Shown here: positions 16,973 through 33,682 of the stretch, in pieces
How positions within the stretch are numbered: position 1 is the stretch's first letter
Layout of the letters: each line of letters opens with the position of its first letter
Source of the DNA: Acidobacteriota bacterium
GTDB taxonomy: Bacteria > Acidobacteriota > Terriglobia > Terriglobales > Acidobacteriaceae
Assembly: GCA_021790655.1 (NCBI GenBank)
Contig: JAJYGR010000001.1
Coordinates: 1-42,429 of the forward strand
Length of the DNA: 42,429 bases
Direction of reading: 5' to 3'
The notes under the pieces: generated by a model
What the model saw: the letters and a program-made list of their open reading frames with translations, nothing else
What the model was told of the DNA's origin: nothing
The model's database searches: none
Program-made: the position numbers and the translations under genes

Positions 16973-17419
16973 TCAGAACTTCGCGATCAGCGTGACGCCA
17001 GCTATCAGCAGCAGACCTCCCAGGAATCTCCAGAGGTTCAGAGGATGCTGATCCATCCGAAACCAACCGAAGTGGTCAATCGCCAATGACATGATGAGCG
17101 CTGCCGTCACTGTGAAGCCGACAAACAGTCCTGTTCCCACCTTGGTGACAAGAGTAAGCCCGGCATAGACCTGAACTGCTCCAACCAATCCGCCTATGGC
17201 CGCCCACCAAGGCATGGATGCAATATCTTTTGCCGTGGGCAAAGGACGCGGCATGATGAGGAAAGCGCCAGTGAAAAAGAAGGTGATGAGCGCAAACGAT
17301 ATTGCTGAAGCAAGCCACGGATTCACGATCGACTTGTTCAGTTGACCGTTCATGGCCGCTCCGCACGATTGCAGCGCGCCGCCCAGAATGATAAATGGAA
17401 TGACCCAGCCAGCATTCAT
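16973..17419 (-). CDS. DMT-superfamily small membrane transporter (DUF606/YdcZ-like)
   Basis: The 148-aa product has five hydrophobic segments. The N-terminus WVIPFIILGGALQSCGAAMNGQL and the overall layout are typical of the family. Confidence 0.65.
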   Translation of the reverse strand: MNAGWVIPFIILGGALQSCGAAMNGQLNKSIVNPWLASAISFALITFFFTGAFLIMPRPLPTAKDIASMPWWAAIGGLVGAVQVYAGLTLVTKVGTGLFVGFTVTAALIMSLAIDHFGWFRMDQHPLNLWRFLGGLLLIAGVTLIAKF

Positions 17420-17461
17420 TGGATTCTCCTTGCGAAAAGTCGTTCATAAAGACCGAGCAAC

Positions 17462-18742
17462 TTACGGAATACAAAAAAGCGTCTTCATTAAAATCGCGGC
17501 TCCAATAGAAAGCAGCAAGGCTATGGGCATGGCTACCGCGCCAACCTTGAGGAACCGCCAGAAACTGACATCGAGCTTCTCCTTGCGCAAGGCAAGGAGC
17601 CACAGAATCGTTGCCAGCGATCCGGTGATCGAGAGGTTTGGTCCCAGATCGACGCCAATCAACACGGCATTCGCGATCAGGTCCTTGGCATGCGCGGCCT
17701 GCAATGTTCCGCCAGCAATGAGTCCGAGGGGAAGGTTGTTGACGAGGTTGTTTGCGACACCTACGGAAAAGCCCGTCACCAGAGCGCCTGCCGCAGGCAC
17801 GAGTCCTTGCACCCATGCCAGCCATGTCTGTGTTAGCTTCAGCGCACCGATACTTTCCACGGCGTCGACCATGACGAAGAGCCCAGCCACCAAAGCCAGC
17901 GTTCCCCAACTGATCTCGCGTGCCAGCCGCACTGGATTGCTGCGTGATTTGATGGACACGGCGGCGGTAATGGCCAGAGCAGCCAGGCAGGTCGGCAGGC
18001 CCAGGTCCTTGCCGAGAGAAGATGACGTGAGCAGTACAAGTACCATCGCTGCTATGCCACCGAGCACCAGCTTGCCGTTACCATTCAGCGGCTTCGACGC
18101 AACTTCGCATTCGAGCGAGGTACAGAGTTCTTTCCGAAAAAGCCACCGCATAACGGCGTAGGTCGCGGCAATCGAAAGGACGGATGGAACGTCGAACGAA
18201 AGCAGCCACTGTCCCAGCGGAGGCATGCCGGTGCGAAAAACCACCAGGTTCGCGGGATTGGAGATGGGCAACACAAACGACGCCGCATTCGCGATGAGAG
18301 CGCAGATGAATAGGTAGGGCAACGGCTCAACTTTGGCCTTGCGTACTGCTGTAAGAATTGCCGGCGTCAGCACCACTGCCGTCGCATCGTTGGACATGAA
18401 GATAGTGACTACGGTGCCGATACCGTAAACAAGGGTGAACAGCCGCGAGCACGATCCGTTTGCGTTTCGCACAGCGACCGACGAGAGCCAGTCGAAGACC
18501 CCGTATTCGCGCGCCAGTTCTGAGAGCACCATCATGCCGATCAAAAAGAGATATACGTCCGTCCCCTCCGCAACTGCCCGGCCTGCGAGCTGCAAGGGAA
18601 CCAGGCGCAGCAGAAGCAGTAAAAGCGCACCCCCACCAATCCAGTAGAACTCCGGGATACCGCGTGGACGGATAAGCATCAGCGCGATACTGACGGCCAC
18701 AATGAGTGGCAGCAGAATATGCGCCAGCGCAGGCGATATCAT
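17462..18742 (-). CDS. ArsB/NhaD-superfamily permease (arsenical-pump-like / anion permease)
   Basis: The 426-aa polytopic product contains GTDVYLFLIGMMVLSELAREYGVFDWL...IFMSNDATAVVLTPAIL...ANAASFVLPISNPANLVVF, which matches the ArsB/NhaD pattern. Confidence 0.8.
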   Translation of the reverse strand: MISPALAHILLPLIVAVSIALMLIRPRGIPEFYWIGGGALLLLLLRLVPLQLAGRAVAEGTDVYLFLIGMMVLSELAREYGVFDWLSSVAVRNANGSCSRLFTLVYGIGTVVTIFMSNDATAVVLTPAILTAVRKAKVEPLPYLFICALIANAASFVLPISNPANLVVFRTGMPPLGQWLLSFDVPSVLSIAATYAVMRWLFRKELCTSLECEVASKPLNGNGKLVLGGIAAMVLVLLTSSSLGKDLGLPTCLAALAITAAVSIKSRSNPVRLAREISWGTLALVAGLFVMVDAVESIGALKLTQTWLAWVQGLVPAAGALVTGFSVGVANNLVNNLPLGLIAGGTLQAAHAKDLIANAVLIGVDLGPNLSITGSLATILWLLALRKEKLDVSFWRFLKVGAVAMPIALLLSIGAAILMKTLFCIP

Positions 18743-19675
18743 CTACCACTTTCTCCCGTTCTTGTTCGGTCCCAATTGCGTACCCAGCAAGCCGTGCTCT
18801 GGCCAAGCCGCAAGTGCATTGTCCTGGTCGCGGTCGAATCTTTTTCTCGGTAGCATGACTGCGGCACCCACGGGCACTCGGATAGCGTCCTCTGCTGCCC
18901 TTCCGTCGGCATCTTCTGCATGTACCCGGAGCGAGTACACGCCTGACAAATGATTGGCAGGAAGGATCCCTTCCCAGACTTGGCTGCCCGTGATCCGTTG
19001 AAGTTCCAAGTTCTGCTCTGCGAAAGTCGCATGAACGCGCTGGATTTCGGTGTTACTCCAAACCTTGGCGCGGACACGAAGACCATCTCGTGCAGGACGG
19101 TGAACCAGGCTGGAATCTGTCATGAGGCGTTCGTCGCTCGGCGACGTAATCATGACCGCCGGCAGATCTCCCAATTCAAAAAAGCGCCAGCTTACAAATC
19201 CACCGTCTATATTTGTGACGGAGAAGCCGACCGGGCCTTCTTCGATCTGCCCTGTCGATCGAGTCGCTGTGTAGAGGGTTCGGCCGTCGTTGGCAATCTC
19301 GTTGTAGTGAGTGTGACCCATGTCGATCAACTGCACGTTGTACTTTCTCACGAGATCACGTAATTCTTCACTTCCGGCCTTCAGATCGCTGGGATAACAG
19401 TGCAGGAGCAGGATCTTGCCCTGCCCGCGGGCGCTCGCATTTTCAAGCTGTCCTTCGAGCCATTGCATCTGTTGCGACAGCATGGCAAAGGACCTGGGGT
19501 CTGGTATATCGAATGCGTTCATCGCAAGAAACCGCGTGTCACCCACCGCGAAGGCGTAGTGTGTCAGTCGCGCTATCGAGTCGAGAAAGTTTTGAAAGCT
19601 CTTCGCATGCACGTCATGGTCACCGAGGATCGCGCACCACGGAGCCCGCAGCCAGTCGAGTGACTGGCGCACCAC
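18743..19675 (-). CDS. Metallophosphoesterase (calcineurin-like), apparently lacking the N-terminal DxH motif
   Basis: The motifs ILGDHDVH, LLLHCYP and MGHTHYNE are present. The GDxxDDG motif (SHSFVYLPGDIADDG) lies upstream of the only listed start (GTG 19675), in the same frame. That frame is closed by a TAG about 30 codons further up, and there is no ATG in between. Confidence 0.7.
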   Translation of the reverse strand: MVRQSLDWLRAPWCAILGDHDVHAKSFQNFLDSIARLTHYAFAVGDTRFLAMNAFDIPDPRSFAMLSQQMQWLEGQLENASARGQGKILLLHCYPSDLKAGSEELRDLVRKYNVQLIDMGHTHYNEIANDGRTLYTATRSTGQIEEGPVGFSVTNIDGGFVSWRFFELGDLPAVMITSPSDERLMTDSSLVHRPARDGLRVRAKVWSNTEIQRVHATFAEQNLELQRITGSQVWEGILPANHLSGVYSLRVHAEDADGRAAEDAIRVPVGAAVMLPRKRFDRDQDNALAAWPEHGLLGTQLGPNKNGRKW

Positions 19676-19739
19676 CGCGTAGGCGGCACGACTGCCATCG
19701 TCGGCAATGTCTCCGGGCAGATATACGAAGCTGTGCGAC

Positions 19740-20276
19740 TCAGGAGGCGGAGAGCTTGAGACGTTCCACTCCGTCCGCTATTCTGTGGGGCCCATGCTGC
19801 TTCACGTCTGCCAGAGCGTCAGCCGTACGCGCAAATTCGAGCGCCCGATAATAATCGCCGCGCTTCAGCGCCTGGCTCGCTTTTTGCAGAGAATTCTTGT
19901 AGATCGCAATCAAGGCTTCTTGGCGCTCACCTCCATGCTCCCAGTGCTCCTCGGCTTTGCGGACCAGACACTCGAACTCATCCGTGACCGCACTTCCTAG
20001 GTCCTTAGCAAGTTGAGAGCTTCTTGCATTTTCACTGGCCGGTGCAGCAAAGTTCAGGTGTTCTGCCGCTCGGAGAAGCTCAGCCGCTTCCTTGATGTGG
20101 CCGCTCTGTAGTTCTTGCCGGGCCAGCGCGGCGAGCACGCTCACCTCTTCGGCGGGAGCCGGTTTGAGAGATCGCTGAAGAATCTCTACTCGGCCCATGT
20201 GCTCGTAGGCACGGCGCAGGTCTTTCGCTTCGTGACGGTTTTCGGCATGAAGTTTCGCGGCCTTCTTAGGGGGCAT
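19740..20276 (-). CDS. Hypothetical helical protein
   Basis: An AAGGA RBS precedes ATG 20276 (MPPKKAAKLHAENRHEAKDL...). The product is predicted all-helical (TPR-like pairs: GHIKEAAELLRAAEHL, GDYYRALEFARTA). No family was recognised. Confidence 0.5.
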   Translation of the reverse strand: MPPKKAAKLHAENRHEAKDLRRAYEHMGRVEILQRSLKPAPAEEVSVLAALARQELQSGHIKEAAELLRAAEHLNFAAPASENARSSQLAKDLGSAVTDEFECLVRKAEEHWEHGGERQEALIAIYKNSLQKASQALKRGDYYRALEFARTADALADVKQHGPHRIADGVERLKLSAS

Positions 20277-20528
20277 GGATGAATCCTTTCTCTGGGTAGT
20301 GCGTGAGATGCGAGAGATGGAGGCGCGGCGCATGGGCAGATTGTGCGCCGCATCCTGTCACTGGACCGGGTCGCTAAGATAAAATTCACGGCGGTTACCT
20401 CTCGCCCTTGGTTAAAGCACCTGCCATGCCATTCCGCGACAAAGATAGATGGCTTTGATTTCAAATACCTTGCGAGCAGAGGAGGAATCCATAGGGTGAA
20501 TCATTGACCGCTATCCACTCACCAACCG

Positions 20529-20633
20529 TGTACGCTTAGCGGACACTATACTCACCCGTAATCCCCGTCTTCACTCGGAAACGCACGAGACACAGCAGAT
20601 CCGCTGCCTGGGGATAATGGAATTTGAGTTGCA
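20529..20633 (+). promoter_or_regulatory. Sigma54-type promoter with upstream 17-bp dyad (kinase/regulator operon)
   Basis: The -24/-12 element is TGGaatttgagTTGCA at 20618-20633 (GG-N10-GC), about 30 nt before ATG 20664. The dyad TGTACGCTTAGCGGACA is at 20529-20545, centred 82 bp upstream of the GG. An extra half-site TGACCGCTA is at 20505-20513. Confidence 0.6.
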
Positions 20634-20663: not shown

Positions 20664-22349
20664 ATGCAGGAGCATCGCCAAAGAACTCACATTGCAAAGC
20701 TTCTTTGGGGAAGTCTACGATCGCGCATTCTTTTGCTTGCTGTCCTCACCTGCCTGTTCCTCGCGGGCGCAGCGTTCAGCTTCTTCGCGTTCCTTCGCAG
20801 CAGCCATGCCGCTACGCTTTCAGCGGCGGAGAGTCATCTGGTCAATGTGGCCACTAGTCTCGCTCGCAACTATACCGAACACGCAGCCACCACGCTGTCT
20901 CTGCGCTCGGTTCGGCCGCTTCCACCGATGCACCCACCACCACCACCTCCGCCGCCCGGCGCGAGCGCTCCGTGGCCACCACCCCCACCTCCTCATCCAC
21001 CCGCTCCCGATCCGCTCGCCCAGCTTACGGCGCAGACCCTACGACAGGAACCTGGCATCGAAGGAGGATTTTTCGCTGCCGCCTCCAATACTCTGCTCGG
21101 GTACGCATTCCCCACGCATGAGGGTCCCGGACCCAGCAGGGTGATGCCCCTACGCGAACGCCCTACTATTGAGAGTCTGGTGCACGATGCTGTCGCGACT
21201 GGCTCCACCAAGACCTTCCGCTTTGAAGGGCCTCACGACGCCGTTCTCTTTGCGGCCGTGCCCATTTGGGAGTCGCAGGTTGGCACGCAAACCGCAAGCG
21301 CATCGGTTCCAGAAATCACCGGGGCGGTGTGGCTCATGGAGCGAATACCCGGCATCAACCGAGGACGCAACCGCCAACTTCTCTTCGGCAGTATTGGCTT
21401 CGGCGCCGCTGCGCTCATCACGGCCCTGCTGGCCTTTTTCGTTACAACGGAAGTTCGCAGCGGCGTGAACTCCGTTCTCGCGCACCTGGGAAGTCTCGAA
21501 GGCGGGTTATCTGGAAAGGTTGCCCAACCAACTGCTCGTCCTCCATTGGAGGAGTTCGATCGCGTGCTCCGTGGCATCGACGTGCTTGCGTTATCGCTGC
21601 AACAGAAGATTGAAAACGAGCGAGCGCTGGAGGCCCAGGTGCGTCACAAGGAGCGCCTCTCCGCGCTGGGACAGTTTGCCGCCGGCATTGCCCATGAGTT
21701 GCGCAATCCGCTGGCAACGATTCGCCTGCGGACACAGTTGACCCAACGCGCAAATGCCGACGCTGCAACCCAGAAGAACGCGGCTGTGGTTCTCGAAGAG
21801 ATCACGCGGCTCGACGCGATGATCGAACGTCTGCTCTATTTCTCGCGACCGATTCAACTCGTGATTCAGCCGACGGACTTGAGCGCGCTTTGCAACACGC
21901 TATTGCAATCGTGGTCGGGCCGCTTACACGAGGCGGGAGTTGAATCTGAATGTGCTGGCGCGGACCATCTGGAATGCGCCGTTGATAGCCCGAAGTTCCG
22001 GCAGGTGCTTGATAATCTCGTCTCCAACTCGTTGGAGGCTCTGCGGGAAAGTTTCAGACAACCAAGGAAAATTACGATTCGTCTCTCCGCCGAGGACCAT
22101 TTCGCTCAACTTCAGGTTGAAGACAACGGACCGGGACTTACTGCGGAAGCGCAATCGAAGGCATTCAATCCATTCTTTACGACGAAAGACCGGGGAACGG
22201 GACTGGGGCTATCGATCGCTTACGAAATTGTGAAGGCCCACGAAGGAGAACTCCGGCTGGAGAATCGAGCGGAGGGTGGCGCCGTCACAACCGTGCGGTT
22301 GCCGCTCACACGGAACTGGGAGGACTTGGGGACAGCAGATGAGCGATAA
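20664..22349 (+). CDS. Sensor histidine kinase (two TM helices, periplasmic domain with poly-proline insert, HAMP-like linker, HisKA, HATPase_c)
   Basis: The H-box is LSALGQFAAGIAHELRNPLATI. The N and G boxes are VLDNLVSNSLEAL, VEDNGPGL and GTGLGLSIAYEIV. The periplasmic stretch is PPMHPPPPPPPPGASAPWPPPPPPHPPAPDP. Confidence 0.9.
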   Translation: MQEHRQRTHIAKLLWGSLRSRILLLAVLTCLFLAGAAFSFFAFLRSSHAATLSAAESHLVNVATSLARNYTEHAATTLSLRSVRPLPPMHPPPPPPPPGASAPWPPPPPPHPPAPDPLAQLTAQTLRQEPGIEGGFFAAASNTLLGYAFPTHEGPGPSRVMPLRERPTIESLVHDAVATGSTKTFRFEGPHDAVLFAAVPIWESQVGTQTASASVPEITGAVWLMERIPGINRGRNRQLLFGSIGFGAAALITALLAFFVTTEVRSGVNSVLAHLGSLEGGLSGKVAQPTARPPLEEFDRVLRGIDVLALSLQQKIENERALEAQVRHKERLSALGQFAAGIAHELRNPLATIRLRTQLTQRANADAATQKNAAVVLEEITRLDAMIERLLYFSRPIQLVIQPTDLSALCNTLLQSWSGRLHEAGVESECAGADHLECAVDSPKFRQVLDNLVSNSLEALRESFRQPRKITIRLSAEDHFAQLQVEDNGPGLTAEAQSKAFNPFFTTKDRGTGLGLSIAYEIVKAHEGELRLENRAEGGAVTTVRLPLTRNWEDLGTADER

Positions 22350-23736
22350 GATTCTGGTTGTAGACGATGATGTCAATCTCCGGCGGACGCTCCGGGATGT
22401 TCTTGAGTCAGCCGGCTACGAGGTGGATGAGGCCGAGAATGGCCTAGGGGCGCTTGCACATCTCGATCAGGGGCCTTCCGATGCGGTCCTCTGCGATTGG
22501 AAGATGCCCGGGCAAGGCGGCGAGGGTTTGCTGCGGGCACTGATGATCCGCGAACCTGCGGAACAACTGCCTGTAATCATCATGACTGCACACGGCACTG
22601 GCCCCAATGCCATCACGGCGATGCAACTGGGCGCCTACGACTTCGTGACCAAGCCATTCGACATCGATGAGGTGCTCGCGACGGTACGACGCGCCCTGCA
22701 GCATGTTCGCCTGCAACGTGAGGTGGAACAGTTGCGCAATCACGAGCAGGAATCGCTGACGGCCATCGAAGAGAAGGAACACCGCCTGGTAGGCATATCC
22801 CGTGGGATGCTCGAAGTCTTCAAGTCCATTGGCCGCGTCGCAAAAACCGATGTGACGGTTCTGCTGCAAGGCGAGACGGGCACAGGCAAGGAACTTGCCG
22901 CATGCACCATTCACGAAAGGAGCTTCCGCAGCCAGCGCCCTTTTGTCGTTGTCAACTGCGCGGCGCTTCCTGCCGAATTGCTGGAATCCGAGTTGTTCGG
23001 TCACGAAAGAGGTGCCTTCACGGGTGCGACCAACCGCAAGCTCGGCAAATTCGAGAGTGCTTCCGGCGGGACTGTTTTCCTGGATGAGATTGGCGAACTT
23101 CCTCTGACGTTGCAGCCGAAATTGCTGCGTGTATTGCAGGAGCATACTTTCGAGCGTGTGGGTGGAACGGAATCCATTCATGCGGATTTTCGGATCATTG
23201 CCGCGACCAACCGTGTGCTCGAAGAAGAAGTCGAGGAAAAGCAGTTTCGCTCCGATCTCTACTATCGGCTGAAGGGTTTCAGTATCCAGTTACCCGCTCT
23301 GCGTGAGCGGCGCTCGGACATTCTGCCACTCGCCGAATACTTTCTGACCAGATTCAACCAGCAAAATCAACAACATGTCCCCGGATTTACAGAAGATGCG
23401 ATTGTCTTGCTGCAGCAGTATTCCTATCCCGGCAACATCCGGGAGTTGGAACATATCGTCGAGCGAGCCGCAGTCGAGGCTGCGGGACGCGCCATCACCA
23501 GGGAAATCGTCTCCAAGGCGCTTCCGGCTTTTGAATCTGGCCCGATAGAAACCACCTTGACTGGACTGCTACGCCTTCCGTTTCATGCGTCGGTTGCCGC
23601 ATGGGAGAAACGCCTGATCGAAGACGCCCTGACGGAAAGCGGCGGCAATAAAGCCGACGCTGCGAGAAAACTTCAGATTCATCGCAGACTTCTATACGAG
23701 AAGATGGAACAGCTAGGAATTGGGAAGCCTGAGTAA
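22339..23736 (+). CDS. Sigma54-dependent response regulator (NtrC family: receiver, AAA+, Fis-type HTH)
   Basis: The receiver is KILVVDDDVNLRRTL...DAVLCDWKMPG. Walker A is GETGTGKE. The sigma54-contact loop ERGAFTGAT (GAFTGA) and ESELFGHE are present. The C-terminal HTH is NKADAARKLQIHRRLLYEKM. I chose the start at ATG 22339, which overlaps the kinase stop. Confidence 0.92.
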   Translation: MSDKILVVDDDVNLRRTLRDVLESAGYEVDEAENGLGALAHLDQGPSDAVLCDWKMPGQGGEGLLRALMIREPAEQLPVIIMTAHGTGPNAITAMQLGAYDFVTKPFDIDEVLATVRRALQHVRLQREVEQLRNHEQESLTAIEEKEHRLVGISRGMLEVFKSIGRVAKTDVTVLLQGETGTGKELAACTIHERSFRSQRPFVVVNCAALPAELLESELFGHERGAFTGATNRKLGKFESASGGTVFLDEIGELPLTLQPKLLRVLQEHTFERVGGTESIHADFRIIAATNRVLEEEVEEKQFRSDLYYRLKGFSIQLPALRERRSDILPLAEYFLTRFNQQNQQHVPGFTEDAIVLLQQYSYPGNIRELEHIVERAAVEAAGRAITREIVSKALPAFESGPIETTLTGLLRLPFHASVAAWEKRLIEDALTESGGNKADAARKLQIHRRLLYEKMEQLGIGKPE

Positions 23737-23742
23737 TGATTC

Positions 23743-24057
23743 CTAATTTGACCCGTGGCGCAAGTCATCGACCATTTTCAGATACTCATCCCGATTGATT
23801 TCTCCCTTGGCATAGCGTTCGGCCGCAACCTGTATGCCCGCGCTTGCCACCGTTGGGCGAGAACCGCTGGCGTTCTTGCGGATAAATCTTTGCGCGCGAG
23901 GCCACAGGAGAACCGCCCCGATGAGGATCAATCCCCAAAAGACAACCTGGTCGAGCCCCGGCCCCAAACCGAGCGGCGGCCCAATGGGGCCGACGGCACA
24001 GCCCCCTTCAAAGATGAGTAACGAGAACGAAGCGACGATGAATACCAAATTCCTCAT
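23743..24057 (-). CDS. SHOCT-domain membrane protein
   Basis: There is an N-terminal hydrophobic segment followed by Cys (FSLLIFEGGC), a second TM helix, and a C-terminal AAERYAKGEINRDEYLKMVDDL, which is the SHOCT motif. Confidence 0.7.
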   Translation of the reverse strand: MRNLVFIVASFSLLIFEGGCAVGPIGPPLGLGPGLDQVVFWGLILIGAVLLWPRAQRFIRKNASGSRPTVASAGIQVAAERYAKGEINRDEYLKMVDDLRHGSN

Positions 24058-24119: not shown

Positions 24120-24656
24120 TCACGGCAAACGCACGACAAGGCCCGTGCTGATTGTTTTCGGGTTGAGACTGCTACCCATTTTCGGGTTGAGGTTGCTGCC
24201 CAGACCTGAAACTCCGCCGTAGCTGAACTCCACCACGCGCCAATCGATACGAGGCAGAATCGTCATATCCAATCCTCCTAAAAACTGATATTCAAAATCT
24301 GTGTCGGTTTGTTTCGCAACACCCTGCCCAAACTGGGTATGGCCAACCCCGATTAGGGCCTCCGCATAGGGCTGAAAAGGCAGTACATGGGGTATAAAAA
24401 CCAGCCGGGGACCGGCCAGGCCGCTGTCAAGTGTGGTCGAGCCAGTACCGAGAAATGCGGCGCGGAGGTCGATCCCAGCACCGAGGAACGGAACATGCCA
24501 GGGATCGTAATATGCTCCCAATGTAGGACCATACAGCCAACTGGTGTTTGGCCGATTGATCTCGGCCGTGCTGAACTCGCCATACACGCCAACCTGGGCC
24601 ATCGCGCCGAGTGCCGAAACGAGTAGCAGCAGTGGAGAGAAGCGTAACCATTTCAT
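24120..24656 (-). CDS. Small outer-membrane beta-barrel protein (OmpW/porin-family-like)
   Basis: I chose the start at ATG 24656. The signal peptide is MKWLRFSPLLLLVSALGAMAQ. Alternating beta-strand pattern runs throughout (YGEFS, GAYYD, GIDLRAAF, PYAEALIGVG, EYQFLGGLDM, VVEFSYG). Confidence 0.7.
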   Translation of the reverse strand: MKWLRFSPLLLLVSALGAMAQVGVYGEFSTAEINRPNTSWLYGPTLGAYYDPWHVPFLGAGIDLRAAFLGTGSTTLDSGLAGPRLVFIPHVLPFQPYAEALIGVGHTQFGQGVAKQTDTDFEYQFLGGLDMTILPRIDWRVVEFSYGGVSGLGSNLNPKMGSSLNPKTISTGLVVRLP

Positions 24657-24681
24657 TGACTGCCTCCTTTGAAAGTAGGAC

Positions 24682-25338
24682 TCATTGTAGTGGCGGTGGT
24701 GGCGGTGGAGGTACAGGTCCGCCAGGTGGAGGTGGCGGTGGTGGAGGTGATCCTGCAGGCGCACCTGTCGGTGGTGGCGCAGATGCAAAGGTCTGCTGGT
24801 TCGCAGTTACACTTTGCGCGAAAAGCGTCGTTTCGCCGCCGATCGCCTGTTGCTGTCCGCTTACCTGAATCAACGTGCCTCTGTTCAAAACGCCGCGCAG
24901 TTGTATTCCTAAATCTGGCGGAACACTCACGGCCACTCCATCGCGCAGTGTGAGCCCCTGCACCTCACCCTGTGGCCCATAAATGATGGTGCGCACATGG
25001 CTCGTGCGGGTGACAGGCGCCCCACCTGCGACTAAGCCAGCAGTAGCTGTTGGTGGCGGAGCGGGTGCATACCCAACAGGCGGCGGTGGCGGCGGTGCGC
25101 CGTATTGCGGAGGAGGAGGAGGAGGTGCACCGTATTGCGCTGGCGGAGGAGGAGGTGGCGCACCATATTGCGCTGGAGGTGGCGGCGGTGGTGGACACGT
25201 GCATGGTTGGGCCAGAGCTGGCGGTGGAGGGGGCGGTGGAGGTGGAACTGGCCGACAACCCGTGACCAGCAGAAGGCCCACCCCTGCTAACAACATGGAG
25301 CACATGGATGCGGTGATCGATTGCGAATGTAGTTTCAT
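24682..25338 (-). CDS. Poly-proline lipoprotein A (paralog of 25343-25966)
   Basis: The lipobox is LLLVTGC. Then come PPPPPPPPPP, three QYGAPPPPPP-type repeats, a beta-rich core (VRTIIYGPQGEVQGLTLRDGVAVSVPPDLG...GTLIQVSG) and a C-terminal PPPPPPPPGGPVPPPPPPP. I chose the start at ATG 25338. Confidence 0.7.
   Translation of the reverse strand: MKLHSQSITASMCSMLLAGVGLLLVTGCRPVPPPPPPPPPALAQPCTCPPPPPPPAQYGAPPPPPPAQYGAPPPPPPQYGAPPPPPPVGYAPAPPPTATAGLVAGGAPVTRTSHVRTIIYGPQGEVQGLTLRDGVAVSVPPDLGIQLRGVLNRGTLIQVSGQQQAIGGETTLFAQSVTANQQTFASAPPPTGAPAGSPPPPPPPPGGPVPPPPPPPLQ
25081..25197. repeat. Tandem repeat of about 30-33 nt (3 units) encoding (A)QYGAPPPPPP
   Basis: On the plus strand the units read ...ggtgcgccgtattgcggaggaggaggaggag / gtgcaccgtattgcgctggcggaggaggaggtg / gcgcaccatattgcgctggaggtggcggcggtggtgg. 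Two related units occur in the neighbouring gene at 25393-25440. Confidence 0.85.
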
Positions 25339-25342
25339 GGTG

Positions 25343-25966
25343 CTAGCTCCTTGAAAATCGTTCAGACCCCCTGCGTGACTGTGGCGGCGGTGGTGCACCG
25401 TATTGCGGTGGCGGAGGCGGCGGTGGTGGCGCACCATATGGAGGAAGCAGTGGAGGCGGTGCGACTCCATTCGCTGTCGGTGGCGGCAGAGGTGGAGGTT
25501 GCGGTGGAGCTACAGCAAGATCGCCCGGAGGAGGTGCGGAAGGAGCTGTTGCGGTCACCGATCCGATACGTCTTCCGGCAGCTTGTGCGATAAGCTGCGC
25601 AGTCATCACCGTGCGTCCTGACACGGAAGGATGCAGTGCTCCGTAGATATTCACACGAGTTCTTAGCGGTGGAATGATGCCTGAGAAGTTGTCCGGCAGA
25701 TCAATCAATGTTCCGTCATCGAGCAGGAAGCCATTGAGCCTTCCATCTTCCGCATAGTTCAGTTGGCGGATGCGTCCCCGCGCTGTGTAGTTCGCGGTCT
25801 GAAGTTGTGTAGGAGCAGAAATTGCCGGATTTGGCTGTACTGTCTGGGGCGCGTTCGCTGCGGATGTATTTGGCGGTGCCGCGGGTGCGGGCGCTTGACT
25901 CGCGCAGCCAGCGATGGAAATCAGAGCCAGGACTGTAGGCACGAAGAGAAAAGTCCTTAATCGCAT
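25343..25966 (-). CDS. Poly-proline lipoprotein B (paralog of 24682-25338)
   Basis: The lipobox is LISIAGC. The core is GRIRQLNYAEDGRLNGFLLDDGTLIDLPDNF...RTRVNIYG. The tail is Pro-rich: PPQPPPLPPP...YGAPPPPPPPPQYGAPPPP. I chose the start at ATG 25966 (G6 RBS); an alternative ATG is at 25984. Confidence 0.7.
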   Translation of the reverse strand: MRLRTFLFVPTVLALISIAGCASQAPAPAAPPNTSAANAPQTVQPNPAISAPTQLQTANYTARGRIRQLNYAEDGRLNGFLLDDGTLIDLPDNFSGIIPPLRTRVNIYGALHPSVSGRTVMTAQLIAQAAGRRIGSVTATAPSAPPPGDLAVAPPQPPPLPPPTANGVAPPPLLPPYGAPPPPPPPPQYGAPPPPQSRRGSERFSRS

Positions 25967-25994
25967 AAGGCGCCCCCCATTCATCCGTGGATAA

Positions 25995-26098
25995 TGCACG
26001 GCTATTGCCAAACGCACAGATTTCCGTTGTGTCCGCGATTCAACAAGATGCATGCAGACGACGCAGATCGAAAGCCATTGTTGACCGCTAAGCGGACA
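25995..26098 (-). promoter_or_regulatory. Sigma54-type promoter with upstream 17-bp dyad (lipoprotein/OMP/SHOCT operon)
   Basis: Read on the minus strand, TGGCAATAGCCGTGCA (26010-25995) has GG-N10-GC. The dyad TGTCCGCTTAGCGGTCA (26098-26082) is centred 81 bp upstream of the GG. The predicted TSS is near 25985. Confidence 0.6.
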
Positions 26099-26189
26099 AT
26101 GGCATGTGACAAAAGCGAACAGAAGATAGAAAGAGCGCCCCAGCTCCGGCAGGAATGGATCAACAGACTTCACCTCCGAACTGCGGATG

Positions 26190-29129
26190 CTAGAAGTTGA
26201 AGTGAGCCTCCAGAAAGATGCTGCGGTTGCCACCTTCAGGCGGCGTGAAGGGGCCGGTAGCCAGCGACTGCGATTTGAAACGCAGAGACGGTGGCGAGGT
26301 AAGCGTGCCGTTCGGCGTGCCTAAGTTCTGATGGTTGAAGACATTCGTGAACATGGCCGCGAAGGTCAGGCCGTACCTGCGAGAGACAGTCGTATCCATC
26401 TTGCCCGGACCTGCGGGACCGCTGCTTAACCCGCCAGGTCCGAGTCCACCCGGATCTCCGCCCGGCGGAGGCGGTGGAGGCCCGCCAGGTTCGCCGCCGG
26501 GTTCGCCTGTCACGCGCGGACCAATGCCGATGATTTTGCTGATGTGGAGATTCAGACCAACATTGGAAGGCCCAGTGCCGAAGCCATAAGGAATAATCTT
26601 TTCGCTGGTTCCTATGGGTTTGGCATCGAGGCAGCCATAAGGCGTGGACACATATTGCGCCGATGTGCCACAACGGGCCGGGTTTGCCATCGTAGGCCGC
26701 GCATTGAATTGGTTGTTGCCGGTAAGGTCGCTGCCAATGGTGATGTTGTAAGGCGTGCCGGAGTTATAGCCGAAGAAGGGCGATACCTGGAAACCATACG
26801 GCGCTGAGATGTTTCCGATGATGTTGATGCGGTTGTGAATGTCGAAACCTGTGCGCCCATCGTCGAACCCAGGGTCCTGCGCGACCGATGGCACATACGC
26901 GACGCCGCTCGTATCGCCTTTCGCATTGTTATAGATGTAAAAGCCGAAAAGACTGAAGCGGCGGTAGCGGGCTGTCCCGGTAAGGATGATCTGGTGCTGG
27001 CGATAGACACCTCCCGATTGATATTGCATCAGGTTTTTGGAAGCTGCCGGTAGCGGCTGGCTTGGATATGTGTTGAGAGTCACTGTGGAAAATGGCGGCG
27101 CTCCGATATTGTTGGTCAAGTATTGATGCACGCCACGCGAGTAGAGGTAGGTGATATTTCCAGTAATGTTCTTCGCCACCTGACGGTCGATGCCCACCGC
27201 TGCCTGCATGTCGTTGGCGACGTGAAAGTCTCTCGCGATGCTGTATTGGGTCAGTGCACTTTCACTAGAGGTTGGATTCGGCGGCTTGATGGCGATACCG
27301 GGACTTGTCTCCTGATAACCCGCAGGATCGGTTACCGTGTAGCCGACTTGGTTGACTCCGTTCTGGTGGATTGCGGTGGTGATGTAAGGCGTGCCCGCAG
27401 TGGAATCGAAGCTGTTTGGCACCGTGAAGCGCTGATAGAACCATCCGTATCCCGCGCGCAACACAGTTTTTGCCGGCTTTCTGCGGGTCGCATGCCCAAG
27501 CGCATAAGCAAAGGAAATGCGCGGCGCCCAATCACTTTTGTCACTGATGCGGTTCTGCGATTCCCAGCGCAGTCCGTAGCTGAAGGTGAAACGCGGGTTG
27601 ACCTTCCAATCGTCCTGATAGAAGAGCGCTGCGTCGAGGACCATCACGCGAGCCGTGTATTTTTTGACTACAGTCACGGCGTACTTTTGCGGTGCTCTGG
27701 CCAGATAATCCGCCGTCGACTGGAATATGTAGGAACCATTGGTTTCGGCGTTCGTGAAATTCGTGTCATCATAGGCGCGCAGGCGTCCGCCGAAGTTCAG
27801 CGAGTGATTGCCCTTGGCTGCCGCGAAGGAGTTCTGCAGCTCAAAGTCGTCCTGGCTGTCATCCACGGCTCCGGAGTTGCTGCCGCCATCGGTGAATGCG
27901 CCCTGCACCGTGACGGTGGGCGAGGTATTCTGCGCAACTTGCTGGCTGCGGATGCGCCGGTACTGGAAGCGGATGTCATCGACGACATTCCTGCTCAAGA
28001 CAAGGCTGTCGCTTAACTGAAATTTGTGTTCGAGGTTGTGCGTGTTGTAGGCCTGCAAGGGCAGGCTTGTTTCTCCCACGCCCTGGTTCGTGTCTACCAC
28101 ACGAAAAAAGTCGTAACGAAGTATCAGCGTGTTTGTGCGGCCAAGCTGCAGATCAATCCGCGGACTCGCATCGATGCGGGAACTGGGATTGTTGAAAGGC
28201 TCGTTCAGCAGCGTTCCGTCTGGATTCGATGGGGTGATGCTGGACGGGTCCGCCGCATCCACCACCTGCACGCTTTGATGGTTGCGCGCAAATGCGCTGA
28301 AGAGGTAAGAAGCATTTGTTGAGAGAGGGCCGCCTACATTGCCGTCAACATCGTAGGAGTGATAGGCGGGTTCCGGGCCTATCAGAAGCGGGTTGCGCGA
28401 GTTGAAAGCCGAATCGTTGCCGCGGGAACCAATTTGCCCGTGCAGTTTGTCCGTGCCAGGTTTGGTGAAGATCTCAATGCGGCCATACCCAAGACGATCG
28501 AACTGCGCCGAGAACGGGTTTTGATTGATCCGAATTTCGCGAATGGAGGATTTCGGCGGAAGCTGCCCTCCGGTAAAGTCATCGATATAGATCTCGCCGC
28601 CATTCGGTCCGGCGGACGGACCCGCCAACGCCTGCAATTCATTCAACAACTCGTCAGGGTCGTCGGAAAGCGCGTCGAGGTCCTTGCCCTGGATGACGAT
28701 TGCGTTGGCATTGCGGCTGGGACTGGTGCTGACAGCTTGGCTCTCATCGCTCACCGTGACTTGTTGCTGCTCTACCTGAATGGAAAGTGCGAAATTCAGT
28801 TCTGTCGATTGTCCCCTGACAACTACGACATTCTGCGCCTGAAACGGAGCGAATCCTGGCGCTGTCACCGTCACACTGTAGATGCCTGTCGCAAGTCCGC
28901 GCATGGCGTAAGTGCCCGTTGCATTGGAGGTCGCCGTCGTGGTCTGCCCCGTGGTTGAGATGACCTTGACAATCGCATTCGGAATCACAGCGCCGGAAGG
29001 GTCTGCCACCTGGCCTCGAAGCGTTCCTGGGTTTCTCCGTCCTGTCTGCGCAGGCACAGAATGCAGGCCAACGATCAGAAGCGCGAGGATCAGGAAACAG
29101 AAACAACGGACCGCTTGATGAATCTGCAT
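26190..29129 (-). CDS. TonB-dependent receptor with N-terminal carboxypeptidase-regulatory-like domain
   Basis: The 979-aa product has a signal peptide and a CarboxypepD_reg-like domain (GTLRGQVADPSGAVIPNAIVKVISTTGQTTTATSNATGTYAMRGLATGIYSVTVTAPGF). It has a plug (IVIQGKDLDALSDDPDELLNELQALAGPS...IEIFTKPG), a long barrel and a terminal ...FLEAHFNF. Confidence 0.88.
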   Translation of the reverse strand: MQIHQAVRCFCFLILALLIVGLHSVPAQTGRRNPGTLRGQVADPSGAVIPNAIVKVISTTGQTTTATSNATGTYAMRGLATGIYSVTVTAPGFAPFQAQNVVVVRGQSTELNFALSIQVEQQQVTVSDESQAVSTSPSRNANAIVIQGKDLDALSDDPDELLNELQALAGPSAGPNGGEIYIDDFTGGQLPPKSSIREIRINQNPFSAQFDRLGYGRIEIFTKPGTDKLHGQIGSRGNDSAFNSRNPLLIGPEPAYHSYDVDGNVGGPLSTNASYLFSAFARNHQSVQVVDAADPSSITPSNPDGTLLNEPFNNPSSRIDASPRIDLQLGRTNTLILRYDFFRVVDTNQGVGETSLPLQAYNTHNLEHKFQLSDSLVLSRNVVDDIRFQYRRIRSQQVAQNTSPTVTVQGAFTDGGSNSGAVDDSQDDFELQNSFAAAKGNHSLNFGGRLRAYDDTNFTNAETNGSYIFQSTADYLARAPQKYAVTVVKKYTARVMVLDAALFYQDDWKVNPRFTFSYGLRWESQNRISDKSDWAPRISFAYALGHATRRKPAKTVLRAGYGWFYQRFTVPNSFDSTAGTPYITTAIHQNGVNQVGYTVTDPAGYQETSPGIAIKPPNPTSSESALTQYSIARDFHVANDMQAAVGIDRQVAKNITGNITYLYSRGVHQYLTNNIGAPPFSTVTLNTYPSQPLPAASKNLMQYQSGGVYRQHQIILTGTARYRRFSLFGFYIYNNAKGDTSGVAYVPSVAQDPGFDDGRTGFDIHNRINIIGNISAPYGFQVSPFFGYNSGTPYNITIGSDLTGNNQFNARPTMANPARCGTSAQYVSTPYGCLDAKPIGTSEKIIPYGFGTGPSNVGLNLHISKIIGIGPRVTGEPGGEPGGPPPPPPGGDPGGLGPGGLSSGPAGPGKMDTTVSRRYGLTFAAMFTNVFNHQNLGTPNGTLTSPPSLRFKSQSLATGPFTPPEGGNRSIFLEAHFNF

Positions 29130-29335: not shown

Positions 29336-29439
29336 GGCACGGCTATTGCCAAAGGAGCGGATCAGCGTGAGACCTTCTATTCAACGAGATACAGATAGAA
29401 GAACATGCGGGATAGAAAATGCTGACCGCTAAGCGGACA
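29336..29439 (-). promoter_or_regulatory. Sigma54-type promoter with upstream 17-bp dyad (TonB-dependent receptor gene)
   Basis: Read on the minus strand, the promoter is TGGCAATAGCCGTGCC (29351-29336). The dyad TGTCCGCTTAGCGGTCA (29439-29423) is centred 81 bp upstream. The whole 125-bp region is a block-wise copy of 25996-26120. The leader to ATG 29129 is about 200 nt. Confidence 0.6.
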
Positions 29440-29533
29440 GCGAGCGTGGCAAAAGCGAACGGAATTTTCAAATCGAGGCAGACCCGGACATTCTTGACGC
29501 GCGCTTCGGTTCTTGCATGAGTGCGGTTGCGGC

Positions 29534-30487
29534 TCAGTGGTGTAGAACGAAGAAGAGGAAAACTCCGTAGGCAATGAAGAGTGCTATCGCATGGCGACGT
29601 ATTAAACGCTTGCGGGGAATCGCGAGTCCGATGACCAAAACCAGGGATGCGAGCATTGCCAGCAGCGGTAGGTGCAATTGATTCATATCCTGCAAGACGA
29701 GCGGATGGACGAGTGCAGCGGCTCCGAGCGTCATCGTAACGTTGTAGGCAAAAGACCCGACAACGCCAGCCACGACCGCTTCCGCTGCTCCGCGCCGGGA
29801 TGCCGACCACGCTAAGACAACCAGCTCAAAACCTGTTGCGAAACCGACCACCGTAAGGCCCAATTTGGTCTGTGTCGATTGAATGTGGCTGATGCGGCGC
29901 ACGGCCTCGACCAGCAAGGTTGCTCCCGCCGCCATCGCGAGCACGCCCGAAACAACAAAGATCAGGTCGAGGCCAACCCTTTTAGATCTGTCGGGGTACC
30001 GGTGAGCTTCCGCAAGCTCTCCCACTTCTCCTAATGTCGGCGGATGTCGCTCGACGATCCAGATCAGCACCACATAGACCAAATAGAGTATTACAAGAAT
30101 GGTCCCCTCGGGCCGGCTTACGTTCCCGTCCCAGGCAAACCAAGCGCCAATGACGCCGAGTGGCAGGCCGAGCAGTGCGTAGCGCAGAGCGCTTCCTGAA
30201 AATGGAAGCGGTGCGATCATCGCGCCAACGCCGAGAGCGATAAGACAGACCGTGACATTGGCTCCGATTACATCTCCCAGCGCAATACCCGGTGAACCGC
30301 GCAACGAAGCCGCCACCGCTGTTGCCAGTTCTTCAGGTTCCGCACCCGCAAGCAGCAGCGCCAGCGCGAAGCTGCTCACTCCTAAAGCGACAGCAGCTTT
30401 TCCAAGGTGTTCGGCGAAAGCCTCGGCTCCCCATACAATGGCACCGATGCCTGCGAGGAAGGCGATGAGCCATAGAAATGTCGTCAT
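29534..30487 (-). CDS. Ca2+/cation antiporter (CaCA family, YrbG-like)
   Basis: The 317-aa product has about 10 TM segments and an internal two-fold repeat layout (…LLLAGAEPEELATAVAA… / …VGFATGFELVVLAWSA…). GDVIGANV fits the family. Confidence 0.7.
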   Translation of the reverse strand: MTTFLWLIAFLAGIGAIVWGAEAFAEHLGKAAVALGVSSFALALLLAGAEPEELATAVAASLRGSPGIALGDVIGANVTVCLIALGVGAMIAPLPFSGSALRYALLGLPLGVIGAWFAWDGNVSRPEGTILVILYLVYVVLIWIVERHPPTLGEVGELAEAHRYPDRSKRVGLDLIFVVSGVLAMAAGATLLVEAVRRISHIQSTQTKLGLTVVGFATGFELVVLAWSASRRGAAEAVVAGVVGSFAYNVTMTLGAAALVHPLVLQDMNQLHLPLLAMLASLVLVIGLAIPRKRLIRRHAIALFIAYGVFLFFVLHH

Positions 30488-30565
30488 GAGTCAATACCTT
30501 TTACATCCAAAATGCTGAATCATGCTGATGACCCTCGTGTCCAACACCGCGTTGGGAGAAATGCA

Positions 30566-33500
30566 CTATCCTTCGTACCGGCGCTTTTCAAATCGTCCGA
30601 AGCGCAGCGCCAATGTAGGCAACACCAACAGATTGAGCGCTGTCGATGTAATCAACCCTCCAAGGATGACAATGGCGAGTGGCCCTTCAATCTCCTGCCC
30701 TGCGGCCCCGCTCCCGATGGCCAGCGGCAGCAGCCCGAGCGCGGTGACGAGCGCCGTCATCAAAATCGGAGCCAGCCTCTCTGAAGCCCCTTGGACGGCG
30801 GTTTCATATCCCCACTCCATCCCTTCCACTTCGACCAGATGCTCGTAGTGCGAGATCAGCATGATGGAGTTACGCAGGGTAATTCCAAAGAGAGTGACGA
30901 ATCCGACCATCGCTCCCAACGAAAGTTCACCGCCGCCGGCAAAGACCGCAAGGACGCCGCCGACCAATGCAAAGGGTATATTCACGAGCACAAGCAACAA
31001 ATTGTGCCAATTCATCAGAACGACGGAAAGCAGCAGTACGATTCCCAGCGCAGCCAGCAACGAGTGGACCAGCAGATCGCGGCGCGATTGCGCCTGGGCC
31101 TCCGCCGTCCCGGTGAACTGCACGTAATCTCCAGGGGCCAGATGCACTTTGGCGGCAATCTGCGCCTGGGCATTTTGGACGAATGCGCTCGTGTTGTTTC
31201 CCGCGACATTCAGCGTGATCGTCTGGACCCGCCGGGCGCCGTCATGCAGTATGTTGTAGCGGCCAGCCTTTTCATACACGCTCGCCAGTTTTCCGAGAGG
31301 AACGTAAATACCTTCCGGACTCTTGATGGGAAGTGCAGCGATGGAGTCCACACGGTTTCTATCTTTGGGCGGCAAAATCACCGACACGGCAAAGACTCGG
31401 TTTCCTTCGTAAATCTCTCCCACCTGCTGGCCCTGATATGCGGTTTGAACGTCCTGCAACACAGTCATCGGGTCGAAACCCCAATGCAGAAGTTCCGGCG
31501 CGCGAAGATCGACCGCCATCTCCGGCGTTCCTGGCGGGGATTGCATTTGGATGTCGGTCGCTCCCGGCACTCCGCTCAAGACGCGCGTGACCTGCTGGGC
31601 TTCTCGATCCAACTGATCGAGATCGTTTCCGTAAATATTGACGACCGTGGACGCGGTGTATCCAGAGATGGTCTCTTCGATGCGCTCGGTGAGAAAAGTA
31701 AGCACGGAAAAGCTCAACCCGGAAAACTGAGAGAGCGTGCTACGGATTTGACCGAGCGCCGCTTCCTCCTGCTCGCCACTCATGGGCTTCAGGTCTACGT
31801 CGATCTCGCTGTAATTCGGCCCCCAGGTGTCTTCGGACAGTTCGGCCCGCCCGACTCTCTGCGAAACGGACCTGATGAACGGAAATTTGTTCAGTGCCGC
31901 CGTCACTTCCCGGCCTATGCGTAAAGAGTCTTCGAGCGAGGTGCCGGGAACGGCGATCATATGCACGATGTAATGGCCTTCGCGAAGTTCCGGTAGAAAG
32001 CTGGTTGAGAAGAAGGGCAACGCCACAACGCCGAGAACAGTCAGGATCACGACGCCGCTCATGACGAGCCGTGGCGCACGCTCAATGCGCGCGAGCACAG
32101 CGCCATATCGCTTCTTGAGCCAGAGGACCACCGGAGGTTCGGTCGTGCGAATCTGACGATGACCCAGGAACAGCAATGAAAGCGCCGGAGTGACCGTCAA
32201 CGCAACAACCAGCGAGGCCAGCACAGAGAGAATGTACGCAATTCCTAACGGAGCGAAAAGCCTTCCCGCAACACCGGAAAGCGTGAGAATCGGCAGAAAT
32301 ACCAGGATAACGGCGAAGGTCGCATAGACCACTGCGCTGCGCACTTCGATGGAAGCATCGAAGACAACAGAAAAAACGGAGCGAGGATGCCCTTGTGCAG
32401 CATTCTCCCGCAGGCGGCGCAGAATGTTTTCGACATCGATGACGGCGTCGTCCACCACTTCGCCGATGGCTATGGCGAGGCCGCCCAGCGTCAGCGTGTT
32501 CAACGAATAGCCCATGTGGTCCATCACGGTGACGGCAATCAGCAGAGACAGCGGGATCGCGGTGCAGGAGATGGCGGCGGTGCGCAGGTCGAACAAAAAC
32601 AAGAAGAGCACGACGATGACAAACGCAGCCCCAAGCAGAAGCGAGTTACGCACATTATGCACAGCGATATCGATAAACTTTGCAGGCTTGAAGAGATCGG
32701 TGCGGATGACGATGCCTTGCTGCTGCAAGGCTGGATTCAACTCCTGGAGCGCCTTTTCTACCTGAGCACTGACATCGGCGGTGTTCGAGCCGTATTGTCC
32801 GGACACTACGATATCCACACCCGTCTTGCCCTCTATGGAAGCGGCCCCGAAAGGCGGCGCTGGCCCTTTGACAACGTTCGCCACTTGGCCTAATGTCGCG
32901 TTGGCTCCATTCTGGCGGACAAGCACGGTGGCGGCGATCTGAGCAGGCGTGAGCGACTGACCTTGCGATTGCAGAATGAGCCGCTGGTTCCCGTTCTCGA
33001 TAAATCCAGCGCCCAAAATTCCTGTGGCCTTCTGCGCCGCGGCGACGACATCATTGAGCGAGAGACCATAGTGGACGAGCTTGTCCGGCAGAAATTGAAT
33101 TTGAATCTGCTTTACTTCGCCGCCGAATATGGACACGCTTGCCACGCCCGGTACTGCAAGCAGACGGGGACGAAGGGTCCAGTCCGCTACCGTTCGCAGA
33201 TCCATCAGGGACTTGCTCTTGGAGGTCAGCCCCAGAACCAGCACCGTTCCCGTGGAAACCGTAAGCGGCGTCATGATGGGCGCCTGCACTCCATGAGGAA
33301 GCTGTGTGGCCACGGTAGCCAGGCGCTCGTTCACGAGCTGTCGGTCAAGGTAGATACCGCTGCTGTTCTTGAAGATCACCGTGATGATGGACAGACCCTG
33401 GATGGAGTTCGAGCGCAGCGAATCGATGCCGGTGACACCGTTGACAACGTTCTCAATCGGCTGCGTTACCAGCAACTCAACCTGCTCCGGGGAAAGACCG

Positions 33501-33661: not shown

Positions 33662-33682
33662 GGTGTTTTCCTCTGGCCTTTA

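Follow-up and report, generated by a model that had tools for sequence, protein, structure and literature searches.

The BOF protein SipA of Vibrio cholerae is induced via a dedicated two-component system and binds OmpA (PMC6370654, PMC5636140), and NlpE, a lipoprotein that associates with OmpA and serves Cpx as a sensor, activates a histidine kinase (10.1101/2022.10.18.512811). Signalling by RcsF depends on linker length relative to the width of the periplasm (PMC5736177), and about half of the outer-membrane lipoproteins of E. coli carry disordered N-terminal linkers (10.1101/2021.01.05.425367). Here, two adjacent genes, named A and B, are described from a 42,429-nt stretch of DNA of an Acidobacteriota bacterium of the family Acidobacteriaceae (GCA_021790655.1, contig JAJYGR010000001.1, positions 1 to 42,429; hereafter the window). 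Both are predicted to encode lipoproteins combining one small OB-fold domain with long runs of proline, and their operon lies beside the genes of a sigma-54 two-component system. The most likely role of A and B is that of a membrane-tethered binding or accessory module of the envelope, carried on a poly-proline spacer.

Genes A and B were found on the minus strand exactly where the initial annotation had placed two adjacent lipobox lipoproteins, with gene B upstream and an intergenic gap of 4 nt, in which arrangement gene A has the ribosome-binding site AAGGAG (Table 1). The N-terminus of gene A consists of a basic n-region, the h-region MLLAGVGLLLV and the lipobox V-T-G-C28 (LLVTG-C28), and that of gene B of MRLR, a hydrophobic core and the lipobox I-A-G-C21 (ISIAG-C21), so that both have a signal peptide and a lipobox of the form [LVI][ASTVI][GAS]C. 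The lipobox is also kept in the B-type orthologues and in the free-standing poly-Pro lipoproteins described below. The exact gene A protein was assembled independently in two other runs of the same study, identical contigs were found in three runs, and the 90%-identity clusters of A and of B were singletons. By their sequence, A and B are predicted lipoproteins, paralogous to each other, and real genes.

The start of gene B at 25966 agrees with that of the orthologues, and the -12 element of its promoter is found about 30 nt upstream of it. The gene caller of the public assemblies lets gene B begin at an ATG at 26053 (236 aa; 25967-26053 in the window, and L001 and L002), and this start is probably wrong since it lies upstream of the sigma-54 promoter, inside the spacer between enhancer and promoter.

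Pairwise BLASTP aligned A and B over about 80 aa with 25% identity (E=1e-4). The shared small beta-domain that had been noticed in the two proteins is real by BLASTP, by profile and by AF2/Foldseek; the leading Gly of the motif proposed for it is missing from gene A, which has S-H-V-R. In the AF2 models both cores have the topology b1-b2-b3-(helix)-b4-b5, and among the top 50 PDB matches in Foldseek almost all were OB folds (TM score about 0.55-0.67, E about 1e-3 to 6e-2). The best matches of the gene A core were RPA32, SSB and the AspRS N-terminal domain, and those of the gene B core were the ExoVII OB domain, RPA32/14 and the LysRS N-terminal domain. In both proteins, the shared core is a predicted OB fold.

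Neither A nor B matched any family of Pfam (E<=1) or NCBIfam. A profile of the two cores was searched against 1.84 billion representative proteins, yielding 557 proteins at E<=1e-3, of which 89 reached E<=1e-10, and 147 of the top 150 were reconfirmed after one iteration, with 1-4 domain copies each. Three spurious top matches (P0003, P0004 and P0100; Calx-beta or low complexity) were lost with the iterated profile. The family members mostly have a signal peptide at the start, and about one fifth have a lipobox-like motif; runs of at least 4 Pro occur in 79 of 149, with a median Pro content outside the domains of 20%, and the domain copies are often separated by linkers rich in Pro. Family-wide conservation falls on structural Gly, Leu and Pro positions. 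Among 74 relatives, weak summed Pfam matches pointed to the OB-clan families tRNA_anti-codon (23/74), DUF5818 (5/74) and DUF5666 (5/74), and BOF was absent from the families matched. A Peptidase_M56 match in one relative was dropped, and the HExxH motif was present in no relative. A sequence search of the PDB with the family profile gave nothing below E=0.09. In a word-indexed homologue search, the 81-aa core had no match, the family alignment retrieved only 23 unnamed hypothetical proteins, and the poly-Pro module retrieved one further allele. As far as these searches indicate, the OB-domain family is widespread and is uncurated by Pfam or NCBIfam.

Upstream of gene B there is a predicted sigma-54-type promoter (consensus TGGCAC-N5-TTGC), with GG at -24, GC at -12 and the exact spacing between them, and a near-identical second promoter precedes the gene of a 979-aa outer-membrane protein. 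A third sigma-54-like promoter was found between the kinase gene and a divergent operon. A palindrome of the form TGTCCGCT-N-AGCGGACA, a predicted enhancer, stands about 70-110 nt upstream of each of the three promoters; it occurs three times in the window against 0.07 expected, and all three copies are intergenic. When 12 promoter regions were aligned (ten A-type loci and two of the window), TTTGGC-N8-TGC was invariant, together with the blocks GTTCGC.TT and CGC...AGCG..ACA, and enhancer and promoter were also present upstream of the B-type orthologues. Other loci had no exact copy of the enhancer palindrome but a relaxed core of it, CGCT-N-AGCG with flanks. Scans for sigma-70 promoters and terminators gave no excess over the shuffled expectation.

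The adjacent genes encode a sensor histidine kinase, whose core is nearest to the AtoS/ZraS models, and an NtrC-type regulator nearest to AtoC/NtrC/ZraR, all matches being far below the equivalog cut-offs. The initial annotation had called this kinase cognate, which gains support from the same promoter and enhancer at gene B, at the 979-aa gene and at the divergent operon, and from the conserved linkage. The adjacent kinase is very probably cognate to the OB-lipoprotein operon, and, from its promoter architecture, the A/B operon appears to be activated by the sigma-54 two-component system encoded next to it.

When one genome per species was scanned, 12 A-type loci were found, all of them in Acidobacteriaceae, with Tunturibacter empetritectus and an Edaphobacter among them. 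In 10 of these 12 loci, the kinase (42-44% identity) and the regulator (about 57%) have orthologues about 2 kb away. In other Acidobacteriaceae, the OB gene is followed by genes encoding a SHOCT protein, a metallophosphoesterase, an ArsB/CitMHS permease and a YdcZ-type protein, of which the permease, 74-79% identical to the window copy, is the most conserved gene of the module. The last three, which come directly after the OB gene there, belong in the window to the divergent operon. The metagenomic B-type loci share this enhancer and promoter and also contain the SHOCT gene and the kinase/regulator pair, the regulator being 80-94% identical. Regulator orthologues (57-80% identity) adjoin A-type or B-type genes in most loci, and the kinase-regulator and OB genes are divergent in most of the orthologous loci.

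Distant OB members were also found beside the same partners on planctomycete-like contigs (P0172, P0161, P0166, P0162; L020, L021), in four gene orders: kinase, sigma-54 regulator, OB, EamA, ArsB/CitMHS; OB, Metallophos, MFS_1_like, ArsB/CitMHS; OB, MFS_1_like, EamA, kinase, sigma-54 regulator; and OB, ArsB/CitMHS, MFS_1_like. This linkage in both planctomycete-like contigs and Acidobacteriaceae suggests that the OB protein is a standing component of a cross-phylum sigma-54 two-component/transporter module. Several of the planctomycete-like OB proteins have a coiled-coil-like C-terminal segment, DREQRLRDLE..QRLR. In certain loci related to that of the window (L017, 2027-2563; L008, 9683-10480), the Pro-rich tails of the B-type or A-type genes shift into another frame, for example ...PPPPLPTLVWLLRHRRQ followed by a stop, which may reflect either a true frameshift or faulty assembly of the DNA coding for poly-Pro.

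Gene A joins two modules, since each of them occurs separately elsewhere. In B-type loci, the gene after B encodes a lipoprotein of about 112 aa with its own ribosome-binding site, consisting only of signal peptide, lipobox and poly-Pro, and this free-standing protein is 63-67% identical to residues 1-106 of gene A, with GCRP, PPPPPPAL..AQPCTC and QYG.P invariant between the two. The OB core and tail of gene A share 50-60% identity with A-type proteins of other genera, whose signal peptides are ordinary and whose Pro-rich tails end in PPPQM. Gene A is, on these alignments, a fusion of a free-standing poly-Pro lipoprotein with an A-type OB protein. Inside its poly-Pro tract, a CxC motif (AQPCTC, aa 46-48, 25192-25203; PCAC in one allele) was noticed, which is invariant in all poly-Pro lipoprotein modules (L015-L017; P0176) as PCTC or PCAC, and which is a possible site of disulfide formation, metal binding or attachment.

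Proline makes up 64 residues of A (29%) and 42 of B (20%). As had been described, the core is flanked by runs of consecutive Pro and by QYGAPPPPPP repeats, with seven runs of 6-9 Pro in gene A (9, 7, 6, 6, 6, 8 and 7), and gene B has a Pro-rich tail of 72 aa with the basic end QSRRGSERFSRS. All 11 (CCN)>=5 runs of the window, which has 56% G+C, are confined to the genes of the kinase, A, B and the 979-aa outer-membrane protein. The DNA repeats had been called near-identical, which was overstated: Tandem Repeats Finder gave periods of 30-36 nt with only 76-84% matches, and the three units of gene A encode one peptide with variable third codon positions, so that the repeat is exact in the peptide and not in the DNA. 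Nothing showed the suggested recombination between genes A and B. Runs of 6-9 consecutive Pro codons should stall the ribosome and make translation strongly dependent on EF-P, a possible layer of translational control on the operon.

The expected variation in tract length and repeat copy number was seen among close relatives, with three, two or one QYG units in three alleles from short-read assemblies whose cores are 90-94% identical. The window allele has three units, a linker of 80 aa and a tail of 31 aa; allele P0002 has two units, a linker of 83 aa and a tail of 18 aa; and allele P0176 has one unit, a linker of 61 aa and a tail of 17 aa. Compared with the window DNA, the third allele shows two in-frame gaps within the repeats, one of 57 nt and one of 42 nt, and on its contig the SHOCT gene follows directly after gene A, without the gene of the 178-aa protein (Table 1). 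In one run, a co-occurring strain carries an additional GGT in the first Pro run and differs at the 3' end. All allele indels are in frame, and the repeat units are not identical DNA.

Table 1. Positions in the window of genes A and B, their parts, the predicted control elements and the neighbouring genes
Feature	Position	Strand	Remarks
Gene B	25343-25966	minus	lipoprotein, 207 aa; lipobox Cys21, short Ala/Pro linker, OB-fold core, Pro-rich tail
Gene B predicted OB-fold core, aa 56-135	25562-25801	minus	family profile E=1.2e-22; AF2 pLDDT 83
Gene B tail units YGAPPPPPPPP and QYGAPPPP	25382-25438	minus	
Gene A	24682-25338	minus	lipoprotein, 218 aa; lipobox Cys28, 80-aa poly-Pro linker, OB-fold core, 31-aa poly-Pro tail
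Gene A poly-Pro lipoprotein module, aa 29-108	25015-25254	minus	homologous to ~112-aa free-standing lipoproteins
Gene A, three QYGAPPPPPP units	25078-25170	minus	30-33 nt each; same peptide, synonymous differences only
Gene A predicted OB-fold core, aa 105-187	24778-25026	minus	family profile E=8e-28; AF2 pLDDT 82
Gene A C-terminal poly-Pro tail, aa 188-218	24685-24777	minus	31, 18 or 17 aa by allele
Gly-rich open reading frames	24611-24868; 24983-25354	plus	85 and 123 aa
Sigma-54-type -24/-12 promoter TGGCAATAGCCGTGCA	25995-26010	minus	upstream of gene B; GG-N10-GC
Enhancer region GTTCGCTTTTGTCAC, then palindrome TTGTCCGCTTAGCGGTCAA	26081-26120	minus	palindrome 26081-26099
Second promoter TGGCAATAGCCGTGCC and palindrome	29336-29440	minus	promoter 29336-29351, palindrome 29422-29440; upstream of 979-aa gene
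Third sigma-54-like promoter and palindrome	20416-20546	minus	promoter 20416-20431, palindrome 20528-20546
Sensor histidine kinase	20664-22349	plus	
Kinase poly-Pro insert, periplasmic domain	about 20917-21012	plus	(CCN) runs 20934-20957 and 20976-20993
NtrC-type sigma-54-dependent response regulator	22339-23736	plus	
Small membrane protein, C-terminal SHOCT domain	23743-24057	minus	conserved downstream partner of OB genes
178-aa secreted protein, putative small outer-membrane barrel	24120-24656	minus	co-operonic with A and B
979-aa outer-membrane protein, CarboxypepD_reg + OMP_b-brl_4	26190-29129	minus	Gly/Pro loop
Divergent operon: 197-aa helical protein, metallophosphoesterase, ArsB/CitMHS permease, YdcZ-type DMT protein	16973-20333	minus	last three genes 16973-19675
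CaCA antiporter	29534-30487	minus	efflux cluster 29534-37338 beside the regulon
CusA/CzcA-family RND pump	30566-33661	minus	TIGR00914 718 bits, cut-off 701
Adaptor; outer-membrane factor	33683-34741; 34769-36220		efflux cluster
CDF protein	36694-37338	plus	efflux cluster

Of the other genes in the predicted regulon, the 178-aa protein is weakly assigned as a barrel since it has a signal peptide only and no family or structure match, with no match in Pfam or NCBIfam and none in the PDB search. Its gene is absent from the locus of the closest allele. Near its 3' end there is a 24-nt tandem duplication (24155-24202; two copies, 87%) encoding LNPKMGSS/LNPKTIST. The SHOCT protein has at its N-terminus a lipobox-like signal, a GPxGPPLGLGPGxD segment and one transmembrane helix, and in one family member (P0042) a similar PLGLGP..D segment with a transmembrane helix is fused N-terminally to an OB domain; this fusion suggests that SHOCT and OB proteins may act together. 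A shorter version of the Gly/Pro loop in the 979-aa protein is conserved, and the 197-aa helical protein of the divergent operon had no family match.

The poly-Pro insert that had been pointed out in the periplasmic domain of the kinase does exist, as about 20 additional residues, PPMHPPPPPPPPGASAPWPPPPPP, within a loop that varies while the rest of the domain is conserved; the principle of interaction or localisation that it was thought to share with A and B did not hold up in the comparison with orthologues given below.

Taken together, A and B would be lipid-anchored OB proteins with Pro spacers, members of a sigma-54 regulon, with gene A arisen by fusion and with a periplasmic binding or accessory role, and this model as a whole is judged on balance to be probable, if by no wide measure. 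What we infer of the localisation, ligand, spacer role and kinase contact of A and B can be put as follows. B and A would be two envelope proteins with one OB domain each, whose Pro-rich flanks probably adopt polyproline II, and they would be the first products of a sigma-54-dependent operon continuing with the small secreted protein and the SHOCT membrane protein. The second promoter would drive the 979-aa protein, the third would drive the 197-aa protein, the metallophosphoesterase, the ArsB/CitMHS permease and YdcZ, and the three promoters with their common palindrome would make up one regulon under the adjacent histidine kinase and NtrC-type regulator. The OB domains would serve as periplasmic binding or accessory modules for the transport and stress function of this regulon, at a distance from the membrane set by the lipid anchor and the semi-rigid Pro spacer; A and B may feed back on the kinase, and their possible contacts are the kinase, the SHOCT protein or outer-membrane proteins. 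Polyproline II extends by about 3.1 Angstrom per residue, and 61-83 residues would thus span roughly 190-260 Angstrom when fully extended, comparable to the periplasm. By length only, it is plausible that the 80-residue linker acts as a TonB-like periplasm-spanning spacer.

Several results weigh against this model. Many family members have neither Pro-rich segments nor a lipobox, so the Pro spacer is not essential to the function of the domain, and column conservation revealed no conserved ligand-binding residues across the family. The strict sigma-54 matches number two in the window against 1.08 expected, a count that is not significant in itself, and the case for sigma-54 is therefore made by position, by repetition together with the enhancer and by conservation. 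The kinase insert is absent from nine orthologous kinases in the alignment, and one locus (L017) has a kinase without the insert and yet a poly-Pro lipoprotein, indicating that the insert is lineage-specific and not a general feature of the system; judged from these sequences, poly-Pro in the kinase cannot be a general principle of interaction. All gene A alleles come from short-read assemblies, which can collapse repeats, so the length alleles could reflect such collapse. In the metatranscriptomes of the same study there were only spurious matches of about 20 nt in GGN repeats, which are uninformative on expression.

Among the other explanations, the poly-Pro tracts may be neutral slippage expansions acting as flexible linkers without a defined length, with only the OB domain and the lipid anchor being of importance. 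The differences in tract length and unit number among alleles with cores 90-94% identical, the many relatives without Pro-rich regions and the lineage-specific insertion in a variable loop of the kinase speak for this explanation. It is nevertheless unlikely: an open reading frame encoding only a signal peptide, a lipobox and about 85 aa of poly-Pro, with its own ribosome-binding site and with AQPCTC and QYG.P invariant, is kept in four related loci; the units keep the same peptide despite synonymous divergence, which points to purifying selection on the peptide; and the poly-Pro runs of the window all fall within one regulon.

It is quite unlikely that A and B are metal- or cation-handling periplasmic proteins, that is, chaperones or buffers resembling CusF or ZraP in a metal-stress regulon, acting via the CxC motif and the OB surface. 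The source of the DNA is mine drainage metagenomes, a CusA/CzcA-type RND system, a CDF protein and a CaCA antiporter adjoin the regulon, the nearest kinase and regulator models include ZraS and ZraR, the CxC motif is kept in all poly-Pro modules, and in ZraPSR a sigma-54 two-component system is likewise accompanied by an accessory protein of the periplasm (PMC4987338, PMC12314577). Against this, the OB core has no family-wide cluster of conserved His, Cys, Met or Asp, A and B are unrelated in sequence to ZraP/CpxP and to CusF, the matches to the kinase and regulator models fall far short of equivalog level, and the A-type orthologues of soil Acidobacteriaceae lack CxC and have no RND genes within 10 kb. 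Since the metal/cation-efflux cluster as a whole is absent within 10 kb of the orthologous loci, the RND neighbourhood provides weak context only.

A more elaborate proposal starts from the cross-phylum module, which may comprise kinase, sigma-54 regulator, secreted OB-fold protein, metallophosphoesterase and ArsB/CitMHS permease, and takes the polyproline II rods as strain-tunable rulers or as elements of mutual recognition by which the OB domains would be placed with respect to the kinase and the outer-membrane proteins. The rods may here take three forms, namely the dedicated lipoprotein module, the tails of the OB proteins and the insert in the kinase sensor domain. This proposal is distinctly unlikely.

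That A and B are structural proteins of the envelope or surface, such as tethers or rulers between membrane and wall, or Pro-rich adhesins, without binding or signalling, is very unlikely. The lipid anchor combined with long Pro-rich rods, the co-operonic outer-membrane proteins and the relatives with several domains like beads on a string would suit such proteins, but the outer-membrane protein neighbour is not conserved even in the closest allele, and the cross-phylum linkage to the sigma-54 two-component system and permeases argues for an inducible, system-specific role and not for a structural one of housekeeping type. Finally, the idea that the Pro frame is a shadow of GC-rich repeats and that the plus-strand Gly-rich frames are the real genes is refuted for practical purposes, for although such frames exist and the synonymous:nonsynonymous counts between two alleles are close (18:16 in the codon-aligned antisense, 21:15 in the gene A frame, which they favour only slightly, and they are not used as main evidence), the minus frames are preceded by ribosome-binding sites and begin with a signal peptide and lipobox, their non-repetitive OB domain is conserved across phyla (E down to 1e-28) and is predicted with a confident fold in both proteins, and the operon structure is conserved; the Gly-rich frames are best read as shadows of the Pro frame.

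If the favoured model of lipid-anchored OB proteins in a sigma-54 regulon is right, A and B would represent a new secreted OB-fold family, lacking a Pfam or NCBIfam model, in a testable regulatory context, and an envelope regulon of Acidobacteriota and planctomycete-like genomes, groups with little characterised envelope signalling. An orphan NtrC-type regulator would gain a predicted enhancer sequence, the cultivable relatives Tunturibacter and Edaphobacter would carry a regulon that can be dissected, and the natural series of spacer lengths (61, 80 and 83 residues) would allow the 'periplasmic ruler' to be tested outside enterobacteria. If the functional model is wrong, A and B would be ordinary Pro-rich hypothetical lipoproteins.

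Compared with known systems, A and B would be of the kind of envelope OB-fold accessory proteins and linker-bearing lipoproteins under two-component control, and their closest functional analogues may be BOF proteins such as SipA, RcsF, NlpE and ZraP, of which they are not members by sequence. With the BOF proteins (YgiW/VisP, YdeI/OmdA, SipA; PF04076) they share a small secreted OB fold and a position next to, and predicted control by, a two-component system, together with an association with outer-membrane proteins. Unlike them, A, B and the 74 relatives have no BOF sequence match, and here the regulator is sigma-54-dependent and the proteins have a predicted lipid anchor and poly-Pro spacers, with up to four tandem copies (1-4) of the domain in the family. 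The weak summed matches to DUF5818, DUF5666 and tRNA_anti-codon come from multi-copy relatives, whereas A and B themselves have no match to these families at E<=1.

The layout of lipid anchor, long non-globular N-terminal linker and small globular domain is that of RcsF, NlpE and LpoB, but there is no homology to these proteins, and the linker here is extreme poly-Pro with conserved landmarks, which also occurs as a stand-alone gene. TonB likewise has a Pro-rich segment that links its membrane anchor to a small globular domain and could in principle, by its length, span the periplasm; it differs in its transmembrane-helix anchor, Glu-Pro/Lys-Pro repeats and TonB_C domain, in place of which A and B have a lipobox and homo-Pro plus QYGA, and no TonB_C match was found in either by Pfam. 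As in ZraPSR and CpxP-CpxAR, genes of a kinase and an NtrC-type regulator lie beside a predicted sigma-54-driven gene of a secreted protein, and in most orthologous loci they are divergent like zraP-zraSR (PMC4987338). ZraP and CpxP are alpha-helical, with neither sequence nor fold in common with A and B, which are predicted to be all-beta and had no Pfam or NCBIfam match to the ZraP/CpxP/Spy family (LTXXQ-type); the kinase and regulator fall far below the ZraS/ZraR cut-offs, and the predicted regulon here adds permeases and a phosphoesterase.

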